Origin: an uncultured Lachnospiraceae bacterium | GTDB lineage: Bacteria > Bacillota > Clostridia > Lachnospirales > Lachnospiraceae | Length of the DNA: 64,000 nt | NCBI GenBank assembly: GCA_944381635.1 | Contig: CALWLY010000017.1 | Span: 15,026 to 79,025, forward strand | Direction of reading: 5' to 3' | Shown: piece after piece, positions 19,301 to 57,443 of the stretch | Layout: each line of letters begins with the position of its first letter | How positions within the stretch are numbered: position 1 is the stretch's first letter | Notes under the pieces: generated by a model | Seen by the model: only the letters and a program-made list of their open reading frames with translations | Databases searched by the model: none | What the model was told of the DNA's origin: nothing | Position numbers and translations under genes: made by a program

Positions 19301-19590
19301 TAGAAATACCTCCTGATAAAAATAAATCACGATGCAAAAAAGTCCGGTGCAGAATCATGATGTCCGCATCAGACGGACTTTTACTCTAAATTTACTATAA
19401 CAAAAAATATTAAAAATGAACAGAAACAGAAAATAAATCTTTTCTTAATTTTTTTTCGTATCCTTTTTTAACGAAGAATGAGCAGGGCAAATTCCTTTTT
19501 GAAAGAACTGTCCCTGCTCATTTTTTATCCTCTAAGTTTATCTTTTAACTTTTAATTTATAAGAGAGATTTTGTGACCCGTTTGAATCTG

Positions 19591-20577
19591 TCAGTCGTCA
19601 ATATCGTCAGCATCGTCATAGATATCGTCAGCGTCGTCGTAGATATCATCGGCATCGTCGTAGATATCGTCAGCATCGTCGTAGATATCATCAGCGTCGT
19701 CGTAGATATCATCGGCATCGTCGTAGATATCGTCAGCGTCGTCATAGACATCGTCAGCATCGTCGTAGATATCATCAGCATCATCATAGATATCATCGGC
19801 ATCGTCACGGATGTCGTCAGCATCATCAGCTCCGTCAACTTCTGCTTCCAGAACTTTTCCGCTGAATGCGTCTACTTCATATTCATATTCTTTATTGTCC
19901 AGAGTAAATTCGATTTCATAAACTCCATCGTCAATATCGTAATCTTTTTCCACGAACTGCAGGTCATCGGATTCCAGCTGTGCTTTCAGAATTTCTTCTG
20001 CGGTCTGAGCATTGATGTAGCCTTTTGCACGGTAGTTGTCGTCGTAATCATCAGAATCAATGGCAATAGGTTCAGAATCCATCTGACGTTCGGAAACAAG
20101 AGTGCGGACATCATCTGCAATATCTGTCAGAAAGTGGTCGTTAGGTAAAGCAGAGTCGGGATCCAGTTTCAGAATAATGTTTTTCTCATGGCCATCTACA
20201 GTTGCGTCGAAATAACCTGCCTCGTCAATGTCCGTCACGAGAGAGCGAACGGTTTCCTGAACCGGCTGGCCTTTGTAAGCCTGTGCATCCTGAATAATTT
20301 TTTTACCGTCATCGTTAAGACCTTCGATTTCCGTCACGTTTCCTGCGGAATCGTATTCGATTTCAATCTCCGGATTGACACTTAAAAGAAGAGAGCCGAT
20401 ACTTTCGGAATGATTGTCAGCGGTTGATGTTGTCTCCGGCTGTGTGGTTTCCACCGGAGCGCTGGTGGAGATGTTTGCTGTTTCCTGATTCTGGCATCCT
20501 GTCATGAGAGTCATTCCCATAAGAGCAGCTCCTGCAAAACTGATTGAAAATAATTTTCTGCCTAAGTTTTTTTTCAT
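19591..20577 (-). CDS. lipoprotein with RsgI-ectodomain-like region, PepSY domain and C-terminal (DDADDIY)n acidic repeat
   Basis: Lipobox LMTGC. The segment VNPEIEIEYDSAGNVTEIEGLNDDGKKII aligns by eye to RsgI INPSVQLDVSRSHRVVGITALNEDGASLI. PepSY-like segment DDGVYEIEFTLDNKEYEYEVDAFSGKVLEAEVD. About 11 heptads at the C-terminus. Confidence 0.75.
   Translation of the reverse strand: MKKNLGRKLFSISFAGAALMGMTLMTGCQNQETANISTSAPVETTQPETTSTADNHSESIGSLLLSVNPEIEIEYDSAGNVTEIEGLNDDGKKIIQDAQAYKGQPVQETVRSLVTDIDEAGYFDATVDGHEKNIILKLDPDSALPNDHFLTDIADDVRTLVSERQMDSEPIAIDSDDYDDNYRAKGYINAQTAEEILKAQLESDDLQFVEKDYDIDDGVYEIEFTLDNKEYEYEVDAFSGKVLEAEVDGADDADDIRDDADDIYDDADDIYDDADDVYDDADDIYDDADDIYDDADDIYDDADDIYDDADDIYDDADDIYDDADDIDD
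19594..19830 (-). repeat. 21-bp tandem coding repeat (about 11 units) encoding DDADDIY
   Basis: Period-21 units of the form GTCGTAGATATC(A/G)TC(A/G)GC(A/G)TC. Units differ mostly at synonymous third positions. Confidence 0.9.
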
Positions 20578-20665: not shown

Positions 20666-20685
20666 TGCGGAAAAAAATTTTAAAA

Positions 20686-21744
20686 TTAATCGTCGTCATC
20701 ATCCCCATCATCATCGTCTCCCTCATCATCATCATCGTCATCGTCGTCGTCATTATCATCATCGTCATCATCATCGGAATCTGCCGGGGGAGAAACCACA
20801 CTGCCGCCTGCAGCCGGAGCGGAGGGAAGTGTACTGTCATTTGGAGCCGGAAGCGATGAGGGGGCAGGAGTGCTGCCCGTATTGTCCGCAGGCACATTTA
20901 CACTGCTGCCTGCGGCAGGAATATCATCGTCATCCCTATCATCGATGTCGTCTTCTATATCATCCACGTCATCGTCCGTATCATCGTCATCTATATCACT
21001 GACGTCATCATCCATGTCATCACTGTCATCATCTGCATCATCATCGTCCTCATAGATATCATCCATATCGTCCGCATCCTCATAAGAATCGGCCGGCAAA
21101 GGAGCTGAGGGAGTATTGACGGCAGGCTGTGAAGAAGGATTCCGTGTTTCCGAAGAAGAATCCTCAGAGCTGCCGGGGGATACAACAATTACAATCGTGT
21201 AATCTTTTAAATGTTCTTCCAGGTTTTGAGACAACTGTTTTTCGGATTGTTCCTTCCACTGGCTGCTTCCTCCGGAAACGGAAATAACAATCTCTCCGCT
21301 GGGAGCAAGGAAGCCCATGGAAATAGCACGGTCCGCAAGCTCATCAGCTACGGTAGTGTAGTCTTTTCCGTGGTAGTCATAGTCGTCGATCAAAGAAGCT
21401 CCGTCTTCATTCAGAGCGGTAATGCCGACTACGCGGTGGGATCTGCTCACATCGAGTTGTACGCTGGGATTGATCTGCATTTGAATCTGTGCGTAGGAGG
21501 CAAAAACATAAAAGTACCGTTCTGTACCAATAAGCGCAAGAAATAAGCAGGCAGCGGCTGCGAGAACGGTTATGGATTTCGGAATCCGAAGTCCTTTTTT
21601 TCCGGAAGGAGTATCTTTCAGCAAAATTACGTCAGTTACGGTTTGACCTGTCTGATATCCACGGTTTGCAGCTTTCAGAAAGCAGCCTTTTTCATCCAAC
21701 ACGATCACATAGGCAGGATGTACTTCCATTACAAGATATTTCAT
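20686..21744 (-). CDS. rsgI: anti-sigma-I factor RsgI family, with highly acidic C-terminal ectodomain
   Basis: RsgI_N-like N-terminus (MKYLVMEVHPAYVIVLDEKGCFLKAANRGYQTGQTV), one TM helix, an extracytoplasmic domain, then two aspartate-rich blocks that end in a 31-aa near-pure Asp tail. Its ATGA start overlaps the sigI stop. Confidence 0.8.
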   Translation of the reverse strand: MKYLVMEVHPAYVIVLDEKGCFLKAANRGYQTGQTVTDVILLKDTPSGKKGLRIPKSITVLAAAACLFLALIGTERYFYVFASYAQIQMQINPSVQLDVSRSHRVVGITALNEDGASLIDDYDYHGKDYTTVADELADRAISMGFLAPSGEIVISVSGGSSQWKEQSEKQLSQNLEEHLKDYTIVIVVSPGSSEDSSSETRNPSSQPAVNTPSAPLPADSYEDADDMDDIYEDDDDADDDSDDMDDDVSDIDDDDTDDDVDDIEDDIDDRDDDDIPAAGSSVNVPADNTGSTPAPSSLPAPNDSTLPSAPAAGGSVVSPPADSDDDDDDDNDDDDDDDDDEGDDDDGDDDDD

Positions 21745-22546: not shown

Positions 22547-22732
22547 CATACGTAAGTTTCCCGTAAAATGTATCATAAAAGAAGGAAAGATGGATAAAGG
22601 AGAGGTTATATATGTGTTAAATGTATGTTAAATATCGGATCATAAGGGTAAAGATGTGAAAGAACGGAAAATTGTGGACGGTAATACGAAAGTTTAATAA
22701 AAATCAGGGAAGAAAAAGGGAAAAGAAAATAA

Positions 22733-22896
22733 GTAATAGTTCAGCCCGCGCCATTCGAAAAACCGCACTGACGTGCTTACTGCGGCTGCGCCGCTGTTTT
22801 CCTCATTGACTGGCGTTTAGTTCATCTGCGCATCGGCGGCAGGATTTTTATGCGAGCATAAATCCAGCCACCGATGACAGATGGCTGAACTGTTAC
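22733..22896 (+). mobile_element. MITE-like structured repeat, copy A (164 bp)
   Basis: Terminal inverted repeats GTAATAGTTCAGCC / GGCTGAACTGTTAC. It is flanked on both sides by the direct repeat GAAAATAA (22725-22732 and 22897-22904). It is near-identical over half its length to copy C in inverted orientation. Confidence 0.7.
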
Positions 22897-22925
22897 GAAA
22901 ATAATAATAAAAATGGAAGAAATGA

Positions 22926-23248
22926 TTGACAAAAAAAAATCGAGAGACTATGATGTAAGCATATTTATAAAAAAAGCGTTGACAGGAAGAGTATGGCATT
23001 GGAAGCGGACAGAGAGAAAGGCATATGGTGGAAGCCTTTTGCGCAGGAAAATGCAGGAAGACCACCCTGGAGCGTCCCTTAATCGGGAACGGTGATTCCG
23101 TTATCATCACAGATGAGAGGCATGCAGGTCAGGATTTTGTTTCCGTTGATTTCATAGGTCTGAAAGCTATGCATGCAAGCAGGGTGGAACCGCGTGAACA
23201 GACGTCCCTTCAGAAAGCATTTAACCATGTTTTCTGGAGGGTTTTTTT
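22926..23248 (+). promoter_or_regulatory. T-box riboswitch (Thr, specifier ACC) with its promoter and terminator, controlling thrS
   Basis: Promoter TTGACA-17-TATGAT (22926-22954). AGAGAG box, specifier-loop context GAAG-ACC-A at 23061-23063, T-box sequence AGCAGGGTGGAACCGCG at about 23179-23195, and terminator CCCTTCAGAAA ... TTTTCTGGAGGG plus T7 (23206-23248). Confidence 0.85.
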
Positions 23249-23311: not shown

Positions 23312-25240
23312 ATGAACATCATATTAAAAGATGGAAGTCATAAGGAGTACAGCCAGCCAATGACAATTTTGGAAGTGGCAAAAGATATCAGCGAAGGTTT
23401 GGCAAGAGCAGCCTGTGCAGGAGAAGTGAATGGAGAGGTGCAGGATTTGCGGACAGTACTTTCCGAGGACTGCCACCTGAATATTTTGACAGCAAAGGAT
23501 GAGAGCGGTCTGGCAGCTCTGCGTCACACAGCCAGCCATGTGATGGCACAGGCAATCAAACGCCTTTATCCGGAAACAAAGCTTGCAATTGGACCGTCCA
23601 TTGCAGATGGTTTTTATTATGATTTTGAATTTGCATCTCCGCTTACCAGCGATGACTTTGGAAAAATCGAAGCAGAAATGAAAAAGATTATCAAAGAAAA
23701 TCTTCCGATTGAACGCTTTGTACTTCCCAGAGAAGAAGCAATCAAACTGATGCAGGAAAGAAACGAACCTTACAAAGTGGAACTGATTGAAGACCTGGAG
23801 GAAGGCGAAGAGATCAGTTTTTATAAACAGGGTGAATTTGTGGATCTGTGCGCAGGCCCTCATCTGATGAGCACCAAATACGTAGGAAAGGCATTTAAGT
23901 TAATGAGCCTTGCAGGCGCTTACTGGAGAGGCGATGAGCACAATAAGATGCTGACTCGTATCTATGCAACAGCTTTTGGCACAAAAGAAGAGCTGGAAGC
24001 TTATGAAACTATGATGGAGGAAGCAAAAAAGAGAGACCACAGAAAACTGGGAAAAGAACTGGGACTGTTCATGATGCATGAAGCAGGACCGGGATTCCCG
24101 TTCTTCCTTCCTAAAGGAATGGTATTAAAAAACGTTTTGCTGGATTACTGGAGAGAAGTCCACAGAAAAGCCGGCTATGTGGAAATTTCCACACCTGTTA
24201 TATTAAACCGCAGTCTCTGGGAGACATCTGGTCACTGGGCTCACTATAAAGACAATATGTATACTACGGTAATCGACGGAGAAGATTATGCAGTCAAACC
24301 GATGAACTGCCCGGGCGGCGTGCTTGTGTATGCTTCAGAGCCCCGTTCGTATCGTGATCTGCCGCTGAGAATGGGAGAACTGGGACTGGTTCACAGACAT
24401 GAGAAATCCGGACAGATGCACGGACTGATGCGTGTTCGCTGCTTTACACAGGACGATGCTCATATTTTCATGACACCGGAGCAGATCAAAGAGGAAATTA
24501 AAAATGTGGCAAAGCTTATCGATGAAGTATATTCCCTGTTTGGTTTCCGTTATCATGTAGAACTTTCTACAAGACCGGAAGACAGCATGGGAAGTGATGA
24601 AGATTGGGAACTGGCAACAGATGCGCTCAGAAACGCCCTGGATGAGCTGAACCTTCCTTATGTAGTCAACGAGGGAGACGGAGCTTTCTATGGACCTAAG
24701 ATTGATTTCCATCTGCAGGACTCCATCGGACGTACCTGGCAGTGCGGAACGATCCAGCTTGATTTCCAGCTTCCTCAGCGTTTTGAACTGGAATACACAG
24801 GCGCAGACGGAGAAAAACATCGCCCGATTATGATCCACCGTGTAGTATTCGGTTCTATCGAGCGTTTCATCGGAATTTTAATCGAGCATTTTGCAGGAGC
24901 ATTTCCGACATGGCTTGCGCCCGTTCAGGTAAAAGTTCTTCCAATCTCCGACAAGTATGCGGATTATGCTGAAAAAGTATGCTGCGAGCTTTGCGATACA
25001 GGAATCCGTGCGGAGACAGATATGCGCTCCGAGAAAATCGGCTACAAGATCCGTGAAGCACAGACTTCTAAAATTCCGTACATGCTGATCGTCGGTCAGA
25101 AGGAAGAGGAAGAAGGCAGTGTATCCGTAAGAAGCCGTTTTGCCGGTGATGAAGGAAGCATGGAACTTCAGGAGTTTGTCGGCAGAATAAAGGAAGAAAT
25201 AGACGGCAAAATCCAACGCCAGACAGAGAAAAAAGATTGA
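23312..25240 (+). CDS. thrS: threonine--tRNA ligase
   Basis: 642 aa with a TGS N-terminus (MNIILKDGSHKEY), a class II core and an anticodon-binding domain. It lies directly downstream of a Thr T-box. Confidence 0.96.
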   Translation: MNIILKDGSHKEYSQPMTILEVAKDISEGLARAACAGEVNGEVQDLRTVLSEDCHLNILTAKDESGLAALRHTASHVMAQAIKRLYPETKLAIGPSIADGFYYDFEFASPLTSDDFGKIEAEMKKIIKENLPIERFVLPREEAIKLMQERNEPYKVELIEDLEEGEEISFYKQGEFVDLCAGPHLMSTKYVGKAFKLMSLAGAYWRGDEHNKMLTRIYATAFGTKEELEAYETMMEEAKKRDHRKLGKELGLFMMHEAGPGFPFFLPKGMVLKNVLLDYWREVHRKAGYVEISTPVILNRSLWETSGHWAHYKDNMYTTVIDGEDYAVKPMNCPGGVLVYASEPRSYRDLPLRMGELGLVHRHEKSGQMHGLMRVRCFTQDDAHIFMTPEQIKEEIKNVAKLIDEVYSLFGFRYHVELSTRPEDSMGSDEDWELATDALRNALDELNLPYVVNEGDGAFYGPKIDFHLQDSIGRTWQCGTIQLDFQLPQRFELEYTGADGEKHRPIMIHRVVFGSIERFIGILIEHFAGAFPTWLAPVQVKVLPISDKYADYAEKVCCELCDTGIRAETDMRSEKIGYKIREAQTSKIPYMLIVGQKEEEEGSVSVRSRFAGDEGSMELQEFVGRIKEEIDGKIQRQTEKKD

Positions 25241-33264: not shown

Positions 33265-33338
33265 AAAAAAGGCGTTCATGAGAAAAACGATTTCAGGGAA
33301 TAGTATTCCTTAAATCAGTCTTTCTCATGAACGCCTTT
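33265..33338 (-). terminator. intrinsic terminator in the carAB leader (attenuator)
   Basis: Minus strand reads AAAGGCGTTCATGAGAAA ... TTTCTCATGAACGCCTTT (18-bp arms) followed by TTTATAC. Confidence 0.7.
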
Positions 33339-33344
33339 GTTCAT
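33327..33344 (-). promoter_or_regulatory. putative antiterminator hairpin ATGAAC-AAAGGC-GTTCAT (AAMGGC hexaloop family)
   Basis: 6-bp stem with hexaloop AAAGGC. The loop and 3' arm are the first 12 nt of the terminator's 5' arm. Confidence 0.6.
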
Positions 33345-36959: not shown

Positions 36960-36996
36960 GCTAAGGGACAAATGGACATAAAATGATGCCAATGTT

Positions 36997-37041
36997 AAAA
37001 GGTCATAACCCACATACGTGTTATGTGAGTTATGACCTTTT
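36997..37041. terminator. bidirectional terminator between convergent genes
   Basis: AAAAGGTCATAAC ... GTTATGACCTTTT. Confidence 0.75.
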
Positions 37042-37065
37042 GATTCTGGCATTTTTGTATAATGA

Positions 37066-43108: not shown

Positions 43109-43120
43109 TTTTATAGTTAG

Positions 43121-43194
43121 TCGAAGCGACAGGATTTGAACCTGCGACCTCTGCGTCCCGAACGCAGCGCTCTACCAAGCTGAGCCACGCTTCG
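43121..43194 (-). tRNA. tRNA-Pro (anticodon CGG)
   Basis: I folded the cloverleaf by hand: acceptor CGAAGCG/CGCTTCG, anticodon arm CTGCG-TTCGGGA-CGCAG and T-loop GGTTCAAATCC. CCA is not encoded. Confidence 0.9.
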
Positions 43195-43217: not shown

Positions 43218-43246
43218 ATAATACTAAAAAATCGAAAAGAAGTCAA
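43218..43246 (-). promoter_or_regulatory. sigma-A promoter of tRNA-Pro
   Basis: TTGACT, 17-nt spacer, TATTAT, about 20 nt upstream of the tRNA 5' end. Confidence 0.55.
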
Positions 43247-43266
43247 TCCCTATTTAAAATTTTTTT

Positions 43267-43430
43267 GTAACGGTTCAGCTCGCGCCATTCGTAAAACCGC
43301 ACTTTGTGCTTATTGTGGCTTTCGCCACTGTTTTACTCATTGACAGGCGCTCAACGCATAGGTCTGCCTGGTCAAAAAATCATGCAAGCATGATTTTCTC
43401 TCCCGGGCAGTCCTATGGCTGAACTGTTAC
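43267..43430 (+). mobile_element. MITE-like structured repeat, copy B (164 bp, diverged)
   Basis: Ends GTAACGGTTCAGCT / GGCTGAACTGTTAC. The left half is collinear with copy A. The right-half hairpin has a different sequence but the same nested-stem architecture. Confidence 0.65.
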
Positions 43431-43440
43431 AACATTAGTA

Positions 43441-43480
43441 TTGACAGAAGTGAGTATACTGTATATACTGAGTATATACA
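43441..43480 (+). promoter_or_regulatory. promoter of the GntR-ABC operon overlapped by GTATA(TA)C repeats (candidate YtrA-type operator)
   Basis: TTGACA, 17-nt spacer, TATACT. GAGTATAC (43452-59), GTATATAC (43461-68) and GAGTATATAC (43470-79) tile the spacer, the -10 and the start region. Confidence 0.45.
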
Positions 43481-52596: not shown

Positions 52597-52643
52597 ATCC
52601 AATCCCCTTATCTGTTTTAACTTTTTCTCCTGCACAGCTCTGT

Positions 52644-52657
52644 GGCTGAACTGTTGC
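52644..52657 (+). repeat. solo end remnant GGCTGAACTGTTGC of the MITE-like family
   Basis: 13 of 14 positions match the right terminal repeat. It lies in the 68-bp spacer between the two AKR genes. Confidence 0.45.
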
Positions 52658-52664
52658 ATGTGGG

Positions 52665-57061: not shown

Positions 57062-57134
57062 TGCGCCTTCAGGGGCTCGAACCCTGGACACCCTGATTAA
57101 GAGTCAGGTGCTCTACCAACTGAGCTAAAGGCGC
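57062..57134 (-). tRNA. tRNA-Lys (anticodon CUU)
   Basis: I folded the cloverleaf by hand: acceptor GCGCCTT/AAGGCGC, anticodon arm CCTGA-CTCTTAA-TCAGG and T-loop GGTTCGAGCCC. Confidence 0.9.
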
Positions 57135-57224
57135 TTATTTATTGATTTGCCTTAACGCAAAAATTATTATATTATAGACCCTAAAAAAAAGCAATACTTT
57201 TTTTTATAAAATTTTCAGATTTGT

Positions 57225-57389
57225 ATAACAGTTCAGCCATCTGCGTATCGGCGGCAGGATTTATGCCCGCATAAAAATTCTGCCGCTGACACGCAGATGA
57301 GTTAAGCGCCAGTCAATGAGGAAAACAGCGGCGCAGCCGCAGTAAGCACGTCAGTGCGGTTTTCCGAATGGCGCGGGCTGAACTGTTAT
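57225..57389 (-). mobile_element. MITE-like structured repeat, copy C (165 bp; inverted relative to A and B)
   Basis: Ends ATAACAGTTCAGCC / GGCTGAACTGTTAT. The inverted repeat extends to 23 bp (57216-57238 and 57376-57398). About 80 bp are near-identical to the reverse complement of copy A. Confidence 0.7.
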
Positions 57390-57397
57390 ACAAATCT

Positions 57398-57443
57398 GTA
57401 ACAGTTCAGCCATCTGCCATCAGGAGACGGATTTATGCGGGCT
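57398..57443 (+). repeat. truncated copy C' of the same element, abutting copy C
   Basis: GTAACAGTTCAGCCATCTGCCATCAGGAGACGGATTTATGCGGGC matches the first 45 nt or so of the element. Similarity is then lost. Confidence 0.6.

Follow-up and report, generated by a model that had tools for sequence, protein, structure and literature searches.

Short non-coding elements that lie between genes in multiple copies and carry terminal inverted repeats, known as MITEs (miniature transposable elements with inverted repeats), include the ERIC/IRU, Correia (NEMIS), RUP and BOX families of Proteobacteria and streptococci. When transcribed, they form stable hairpins and can alter mRNA processing or stability, and their partner transposases and duplications (TA for Correia) are other than those considered below. 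Elements of the IS200/IS605, REP/RAYT and PATE types are handled by Y1/HUH enzymes and have neither terminal inverted repeats nor a target duplication. The Clostridiales-1 RNA motif (RF01699; Weinberg et al. 2010, PMC2864571) is listed among the candidate small RNAs to which no function has been assigned. We analysed a 64,000-nucleotide stretch of DNA from an uncultured Lachnospiraceae bacterium (contig CALWLY010000017.1, positions 15,026 to 79,025 of the forward strand; referred to here as the window), which contains three full-length copies (A, B and C) and two fragments (D and E) of one repeated element (Table 1). We conclude, with a probability of roughly 0.8, that this element is a MITE whose interior fold is kept by selection.

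The element proved to be one member of a large family. Scanning species-representative genomes with a 21-nt pattern taken from its conserved half yielded at least 115 loci, and those listed come from Mediterraneibacter, Blautia, Dorea, Lachnoclostridium, Lacrimispora, Acetatifactor and unnamed Lachnospiraceae. A genome often has several loci, and Mediterraneibacter hominis NSJ-55 (NZ_JACOPF01) has at least 4 copies. The listed loci gave 94 copies that have a 14-bp terminal inverted repeat at either end (GTAACAGTTCAGCC and GGCTGAACTGTTAC), 76 of them 161 to 169 bp long. In the window, the repeat GGCTGAACTGTTAC has eight matching sites, compared with 0.2 expected by chance. Among the 61 copies with clear ends, the flanking 8-bp target duplications agreed at 8/8 positions in 16 copies, at 7/8 in 8 and at 6/8 in 12, while none of 244 shifted controls reached 7/8 (mean match, 5.54 in the copies versus 2.32). 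The A+T content of the perfect duplications was 85%. The element is shorter than 300 bp and has no conserved open reading frame (ORF), the sole ORF, on the complement, being broken by stops or frameshifts in many copies. This micro-ORF, on the complement of the conserved half (MSKTAAAAAISTKCGFTNGAG, then a stop), was rejected, given these interruptions and the non-synonymous changes at covarying positions. Deletion derivatives of 55 to 140 bp retain both ends as well as the duplications, and it is often the hairpin that was deleted, at short direct repeats. An earlier note on copy B had held that a decaying MITE fits less well; it is indeed not merely decaying, but its repeats, duplications and ends identify it as a MITE. 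The note had also overlooked the target duplication of copy A and fragments D and E.

The ends of the family resemble those of insertion sequences of the ISBst12 group (IS66 family). Like the MITE, these insertion sequences generate 8-bp duplications and are found in Lachnospiraceae and gut metagenomes; their repeats start with GTAAC..TTCAG(C) and are 11/14 to 13/14 identical to those of the MITE. They are 1.6 to 1.9 kb long and encode a DDE_Tnp_IS66 transposase of ~480 to 490 amino acids, whereas the MITE is 164 bp long and contains no gene. It is thus not itself an insertion sequence and could at most be a derivative or parasite of one. The published ISDge4, from a Deinococcus paper, has repeats GTGACTACTCAGCA and GTAACTGCTCAGCA and an 8-bp duplication (PMC12898284). 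An ISGka4-family element on plasmid pHTA426 has repeats GTAACTATTCAGCCCGTAC and GTATCTATTCAGCCCAGTAC and the duplication GACGAGTT, its ISBst12-type end being GTAACTATTCAGCCCG. Transposase relatives in viral contigs have repeats of the form GTAACT[AG]TTCAG, with perfect 8-bp duplications at six elements; one such insertion sequence (L238) carries GTAACTGTTCAGCC, identical to the MITE repeat at 13/14 positions, and the duplication CATAATTT. A Lachnospiraceae insertion sequence of 1826 bp has GTAACTGTTCAGAACCCC at both ends, with the duplication AAAAAGAT in one copy, and encodes P0208, a 491-amino-acid transposase annotated 'IS66 family transposase [Lachnospiraceae bacterium]'. Further gut insertion sequences show the same repeat theme, mostly with no duplication (AATAATTT in one, L266). 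Since both the repeats and the 8-bp duplications match ISBst12-group ends, the MITE would be moved in trans by a DDE transposase of this group that is encoded elsewhere and binds the repeats. Judged from these sequence comparisons, the link to the ISBst12 group is one at the family level only. In several contigs, a HEPN/nucleotidyltransferase pair, resembling a toxin-antitoxin system, adjoins the 1826-bp insertion sequence (L253:2993-3713).

The exact repeat of the MITE, with 8-bp duplications, is also found in other small MITE families that have unrelated interiors. Scanning viral contigs with the 14-mer repeat mostly returned chance single matches and such families. In viral contigs we observed elements of 105 to 260 bp with GTAACAGTTCAGCC-type repeats (L176:2671-2808, L177:4302-4406, L185:1621-1725, L217:406-665 and L230:11812-12066), which have 8-bp duplications, for example CACTGTAG and CAAAATTG, and unrelated interiors. 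The family itself gave no match in a plasmid collection and only two partial matches in a phage collection, both in unannotated faecal phage contigs. Rfam at its gathering threshold returned nothing for the element in the window or in 18 loci, and full-text literature searches for the sequence of the element and for Lachnospiraceae MITEs found nothing.

We next consider the interior. The 74 distinct sequences among the 161- to 169-bp copies were aligned with MAFFT, and RNAalifold predicted from this alignment a helix formed by the terminal repeats, the helices P1 (GCGCC/GGCGC), P2 (GNAAAAC/GTTTTN'C), P3 (GCAC/GTGC) and P4 (GYGGC/GCCRC), and a long hairpin. Between its repeats the element holds a compact four-helix module and a long hairpin, with pairing kept by compensatory change among subfamilies. 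For copy B, folding energies of -75.3 and -72.6 kcal/mol were obtained for the plus and the minus strand (z = -9.6 and -8.1, respectively), and on either strand none of 200 shuffles was as good. The three window copies do share nearly the same length and one layout, as the earlier note had reported, and its quoted hairpin strings were accurate. Its description of the conserved half named P3 and the stem of P1 correctly but missed P2 and P4.

A covariance model built from the 74 copies gave 102 matches in 0.78 Mb, including copies that lack the retrieval pattern, which itself fixes 21 columns and thereby forces invariance there. In the alignment of these 102 matches, which was fitted to the model and therefore leans towards structure, 95.8% of the cells were able to pair, versus 86.6% in shuffles, and 22 pairs were altered on both sides, versus 11.9; none of 500 shuffles reached the observed values, a significance overstated by the kinship of the copies. 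The covariation score was 0.205, compared with 0.008 to 0.029 when partners were slid. A variable P2 pair is UA in 51 matches, GC in 20 and CG in 19, a P4 pair is CG in 64 and UA in 32, and several hairpin pairs occur as three or four Watson-Crick types (e.g., UA 30, GC 28, CG 19 and AU 5). All 9 scored pairs of the long hairpin were altered on both sides. When hairpins were folded singly, wholly different stem sequences were still found to pair between the CAT...ATG base and the ATGC-RR-GCAT apex. On many more copies than those compared in the earlier note, covariation of the helices went well beyond both the shuffled and the slid controls. From the compensatory substitutions among subfamilies we infer that selection maintains pairing in those lineages that continue to spread.

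Copies A and B illustrate this pattern. They are 95% identical in the 21-nt block of the retrieval pattern, 78% in the remaining conserved half and only 44% in the long hairpin, where each nevertheless folds, which bears out the claim that the hairpin is retained through paired substitutions. The further claim, that structure was selected in copy B as its sequence changed, holds insofar as the fold is kept by compensatory change, but copy B has not diverged in place. Its hairpin is of a subfamily (CATGG/CATAGG...CGAAAAATCATGC) that makes up ~20 of the 74 aligned copies and occurs in many genomes, so that the difference between A and B is one between subfamilies.

Loop and mismatch chemistry led us to assign the fold to the complement of the orientation in which the conserved half comes first. 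As RNA, the complement was the more stable strand for 61 of 74 hairpins and for all 74 conserved halves. In the reported orientation, single A·C or C·A mismatches, which become G·U on the complement, numbered 48, versus 26 G·U pairs. On the complement, the P3 loops are most often GAA (22), GCA (14) and GUCA (7), the P4 loops GGCA (19), GCA (12) and GUCA (6), and the apex loops CUUG (33), CUCG (27) and CCUG (6), and the invariant TC/TC mismatches beside P2 become a tandem G·A motif, AUGAGU...ACGAAU. Structured RNAs classically show GNA and GNNA loops, a CUUG apex and tandem G·A pairs; in DNA, too, tandem G·A pairs and loops closed by G·A are stable. A functional RNA had been among the proposals of the earlier note, and the strand-specific chemistry together with the Clostridiales-1 relationship described next agrees with it, except that the RNA-like motifs lie on the complement of the strand that the note described.

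With permissive thresholds, copy B matched RF01699 at 17.8 bits on the complement strand, and copies A and C gave no match. Six other copies matched with full coverage of the model, always on the complement, at 24 to 38 bits: L104 (37.9 bits, E = 8.9e-5, the best), L107 (34.6 bits, E = 7e-4), L089 (32.1 bits, E = 3.3e-3), L038 (30.7 bits, E = 7.8e-3), L026 (28.4 bits, E = 0.033) and L014 (24.3 bits, E = 0.4). On that same strand, a search by sequence only with nhmmer returned weak matches in collinear order (11.9 bits; E = 1e-4 against eight database sequences). Matches to miRNA and other Rfam models at 15 to 35 bits were treated as generic hairpin noise. The RF01699 alignments share a CAG after the closing helix, a UGCUYGCA apex, CGCC, UGAGCA and UGCGAA. 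Like the present family, Clostridiales-1 is ~165 nt long, and occurs in gut Clostridiales/Lachnospiraceae in many copies per genome. In both, CAG follows the closing helix, and the first hairpin is long, carries GCUUGC (CUUG) at its apex and is followed by CGCC. The tandem G·A motif reads UGAGC...GCGAA there and AUGAGU...ACGAAU here, and small hairpins with GNRA-like and GNA loops are found in both. The order of the helices agrees as well. The two differ in the topology of the 3' domain, the small hairpins P3 and P4 being nested inside P1/P2 here and placed side by side in Clostridiales-1, and in their ends, which are GTAACAGTTCAGCC here and GATRCCAGGGTCAAAAG in canonical Clostridiales-1, the second repeat of which lies outside the Rfam motif. 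We regard distant homology of the two cores as probable, at about even chances.

Canonical Clostridiales-1 copies of accession ABOU02, read with their flanks from the supplement of PMC2864571 (e.g., NZ_ABOU02000032.1/102367-101800 and NZ_ABOU02000033.1/1630-2197), extend beyond the Rfam motif, where a conserved hairpin, GUCGGGGGCUUUUGACCCCGAC, contains the second repeat. Their ends form a repeat matching at ~16/18 positions (GATGCCAGGGTCAAAAGG versus GATGTCGGGGTCAAAAGC), and they are flanked by direct repeats of 7 to 8 bp (UUAUAUUU/UUAUAUUU, AUUUGUA/AUUUGUA and ACAUAAA/ACAUAAA). The repeat of the present family is absent beside these copies. In sequence, the canonical Clostridiales-1 copies thus look like MITEs themselves, and one structured core may be common to two MITE families whose ends differ. 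Such a core could be a functional module, captured or kept because, as RNA or as a single strand, it helps the element to spread or persist, a proposal we think unlikely; it might recruit a host K-turn or G·A-binding protein, or a transposase.

Both RNA and single-stranded DNA roles are possible for the fold. As an approximate ranking, we place an RNA role ahead of a DNA role, and both ahead of the absence of selection on structure. In an RNA role, which falls somewhat short of an even chance in our view, the element would be transcribed by read-through from a neighbouring promoter and would form a closed, nuclease-resistant domain that alters transcript processing or stability, or would bind a protein at its tandem G·A motifs; insertions would thereby become tolerable or useful. 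Copies of the family are intergenic, lying between divergent genes in 20 cases and between convergent genes in 4, with only 2 inside long ORFs. Copy B lies between TTGACT-17-TATTAT, directed towards a tRNA-Pro gene, and TTGACA-17-TATACT, directed towards a GntR operon. Promoter-like sites that would read the complement strand adjoin copies A and C, which leaves an RNA role open. No conserved terminator was found in the window copies. A terminator scan flagged P4 plus TGTTTT in each of them (43315-43338, 22782-22804 and 57318-57340); this site has a stem of five pairs and only four U, and the U tract doubles as the covarying 3' strand of P2. A U run is lacking at the long hairpin. An A tract before the small hairpins and a T tract after them resemble a weak bidirectional terminator.

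Several observations weigh against a MITE with a selected interior fold. All insertion sequences examined have T at position 6 of the repeat, so that no exact partner repeat, with A at this position, was found among them; an ISBst12/IS66-type transposase was present at none of the 115 listed MITE loci, and the MITE interior showed no similarity beyond the repeats to the insertion-sequence ends examined. The retrieved loci likewise contained no parent insertion sequence, as judged from repeat pairs 0.3 to 4 kb apart, ORFs beside truncated copies and IS66 catalytic motifs. The flanks of copy B agree at only 3/8 positions, so that it has no clean target duplication, and the 14 contigs encoding proteins of the window showed filled sites or contig ends only, without any empty site. 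One genome carries an identical hairpin-less derivative of 100 bp at two loci (L042 and L074) with separate duplications, and the hairpin may hence be dispensable for transposition; recurrent deletion at a TTACAG microhomology could be an alternative origin of both derivatives. As to transcription, the copies have no conserved internal promoter, their orientation to flanking genes in tandem contexts is without significant bias (24 versus 14), what lean exists runs counter to the complement being transcribed in the sense direction, and in the window the copies are situated between divergent promoter-like sites, outside obvious transcripts. Finally, every RF01699 score of the family lies below the gathering score of 48 bits, and generic hairpins reach ~35 bits against miRNA models; for these reasons, and because of its other 3' topology, we have not filed the family as a member of Clostridiales-1.

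The fold might instead act as DNA, in that extruded or single-stranded hairpins would shorten the ~140 bp between the repeats and so aid synapsis of the ends, either because the element is shorter than the persistence length of DNA or during a single-strand step of copy-out transposition. Conservation of structure does follow element lineages rather than host context, and the unbiased orientation and the position of the window copies outside obvious transcripts would fit as well. Tandem G·A pairs and GNA triloops closed by C-G, motifs of the complement strand, are very stable in DNA as well, as in mini-hairpins of the d(GCGAAGC) type. A core that is probably homologous between two kinds of ends further suggests independence from one transposase. 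On the other hand, the two hairpin-less derivatives with separate duplications speak against a need for the hairpin, a cruciform requires both strands to fold whereas the loop chemistry favours one, and we know of no single-strand step in transposition of the ISBst12 group. We consider this role rather unlikely. Still less likely is that structure is under no selection and that the pairing reflects self-correction of quasi-palindromes, by template switching or gene conversion, combined with young copies of a few palindromic masters. Long near-perfect palindromes do dominate the covariation signal, kinship of the copies inflates significance against shuffles, and regular deletion of the hairpin at short direct repeats betrays instability at the DNA level. 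Self-correction would not, however, account for the covariation of P2 and P4, which are short helices whose strands are separated by 37 nt and ~4 nt and which lie outside the long palindrome, nor for asymmetric internal loops (the tandem G·A and a B-type loop) that persist uncorrected, for loops biased to G..A on one strand, or for the same architecture in Clostridiales-1 with different sequences.

Two other explanations would deny that the element is a MITE of this type. The copies could be free-standing small RNA genes of the Clostridiales-1 type, spread by duplication, with the apparent terminal repeats being their closing helix. Repeated sub-threshold RF01699 matches span nearly the whole element, the outer stem of that model aligns with the inner part of the repeats, and the fold is very stable; but the 8-bp target duplications directly adjoin the repeats, the repeats match insertion-sequence ends of the ISBst12 group and enclose unrelated interiors elsewhere, deletion derivatives lose the putative RNA and keep the ends, and no conserved promoter or terminator was found in the window copies. 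This makes a free-standing RNA gene quite improbable. The chance is close to negligible that the element is single-stranded DNA handled by a Y1 (HUH) transposase, as in the IS200/IS605, REP/RAYT or PATE systems whose enzymes the earlier note had proposed to recognise the hairpin. Stable hairpins adjoin one end and the fold is strand specific, as such a mechanism would have it, but terminal inverted repeats and 8-bp duplications mark DDE-type ends of the IS66 family, and we dropped the proposal; the flanks examined showed neither a Y1 nor a RAYT gene. A retron-like reading, prompted by the closing repeats, small hairpins and long hairpin, was dropped because the copies are numerous, dispersed and accompanied by duplications, and because none of the ORFs listed beside truncated copies was seen to resemble a reverse transcriptase, although no protein-family search was made for these ORFs. 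We therefore retain the interpretation of the element as a MITE with a selected fold.

Table 1. Copies of the element in the window and parts of copy B (window positions; copy B is given with its conserved half first)
Feature	Position	Strand	Details
Copy A	22733-22896	+	164 bp; covariance-model score 147.4 bits
Copy A with target duplication	22725-22904	+	perfect 8-bp GAAAATAA at 22725-22732 and 22897-22904
Copy B	43267-43430	+	full-length, 164 bp; covariance-model score 169.5 bits
Copy C	57225-57389	-	full-length, 165 bp; covariance-model score 156.2 bits
Fragment D	57398-57438	-	terminal repeat and one hairpin arm; weak covariance-model match, 11.9 bits
Fragment E	52622-52658	+	B-type copy, final 37 nt only, with hairpin arm and terminal repeat of the right side; 78% identical to B
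B, left terminal inverted repeat	43267-43280	+	GTAACGGTTCAGCT; like ISBst12-group insertion-sequence ends
B, conserved half	43282-43350	+	holds P1, P2, P3 and P4
B, P1	43282-43286 / 43346-43350	+	GCGCC / GGCGC
B, TC/TC mismatches	43289-43290 and 43337-43338	+	tandem G·A on complement
B, P2	43291-43297 / 43330-43336	+	GTAAAAC / GTTTTAC
B, P3	43299-43302 / 43306-43309	+	GCAC / GTGC
B, P4	43315-43319 / 43324-43328	+	GTGGC / GCCAC
B, long hairpin	43357-43417	+	CATAGG...CCTATG; apex loop 43385-43388, CAAG (CUUG on complement)
B, right terminal inverted repeat	43417-43430	+	GGCTGAACTGTTAC; identical to family consensus

The terminal repeat of copy C is lengthened to 26 nt (57213-57238 with 57376-57401), this copy is bordered by an inverted rather than a direct repeat, and fragment D follows head-to-tail 8 bp beyond it. 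Head-to-tail arrangements were also observed at L004, L063, L087 and L092, either as tandem conserved-half units or as two full copies in a row. The site of copy B was filled in 10 of 10 contigs that encode an identical neighbouring ABC-transporter protein, one of which (L274) has a chimeric copy there. In a comparison of L274:790-1015 with window positions 43230-43450, the left part of this chimera came from another copy, and its right arm and flank were identical to B; the upstream gene is an FKBP gene, versus tRNA-Pro and rubrerythrin upstream of B. The chimera suggests that the locus was rearranged by recombination between copies, and such recombination may also explain the missing target duplication of B.

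Copies B and C lie just upstream of the promoter regions of tRNA-Pro(CGG) (43120-43194) and tRNA-Lys(CTT) (57062-57134), respectively, both on the minus strand. Copy A is situated 30 bp upstream of the promoter-like site of a unit formed by a T-box leader (22970-23212, 98.6 bits) and the downstream threonyl-tRNA synthetase gene (23312-25240), and a similar order, a MITE copy followed by a T-box, was seen at L094. The window also contains two long near-perfect intergenic inverted repeats that are unrelated to the element, at 33265-33341 (arms of 38 nt separated by 1 nt) and 36978-37060 (arms of 39 nt separated by 5 nt). Long minus-strand ORFs (19591-20577 and 20686-21744) contain ten tandem repeats of 21 bp as well as repeats rich in GAT/GAC, at 19552-19848 and 20673-21096, and their products are probably acidic, Asp-rich repetitive proteins.

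Taken as a whole, the family is a widespread, previously unannotated repeat of gut Lachnospiraceae that is tied to one transposase group in particular (ISBst12, IS66 family) and linked to the orphan Clostridiales-1 motif. Unannotated copies confuse assemblies, in which contigs break at copies, as well as promoter annotation and RNA-motif searches, and copies appear to serve as recombination substrates that rearrange gene order, as at L274. With a structure kept while its sequence is replaced, and with strand-specific chemistry, the family offers a good natural test case for selection on MITE folds, be it on RNA, on DNA or on neither.

Compared with known systems, the element is of a well-defined but not unprecedented kind, a structured MITE of the ISBst12/IS66 type with a Clostridiales-1-like core. 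It shares with IS200/IS605 ends and with REP/RAYT and PATE elements the property that the shape of a hairpin matters more than its sequence. If the core were a functional module, it would bear a loose analogy to the RNAs that assist IS110 or IS605 elements. From ERIC/IRU, Correia, RUP and BOX, the family is distinguished by an interior that forms a multi-helix fold with RNA-type motifs and that has a probable relative in Rfam.

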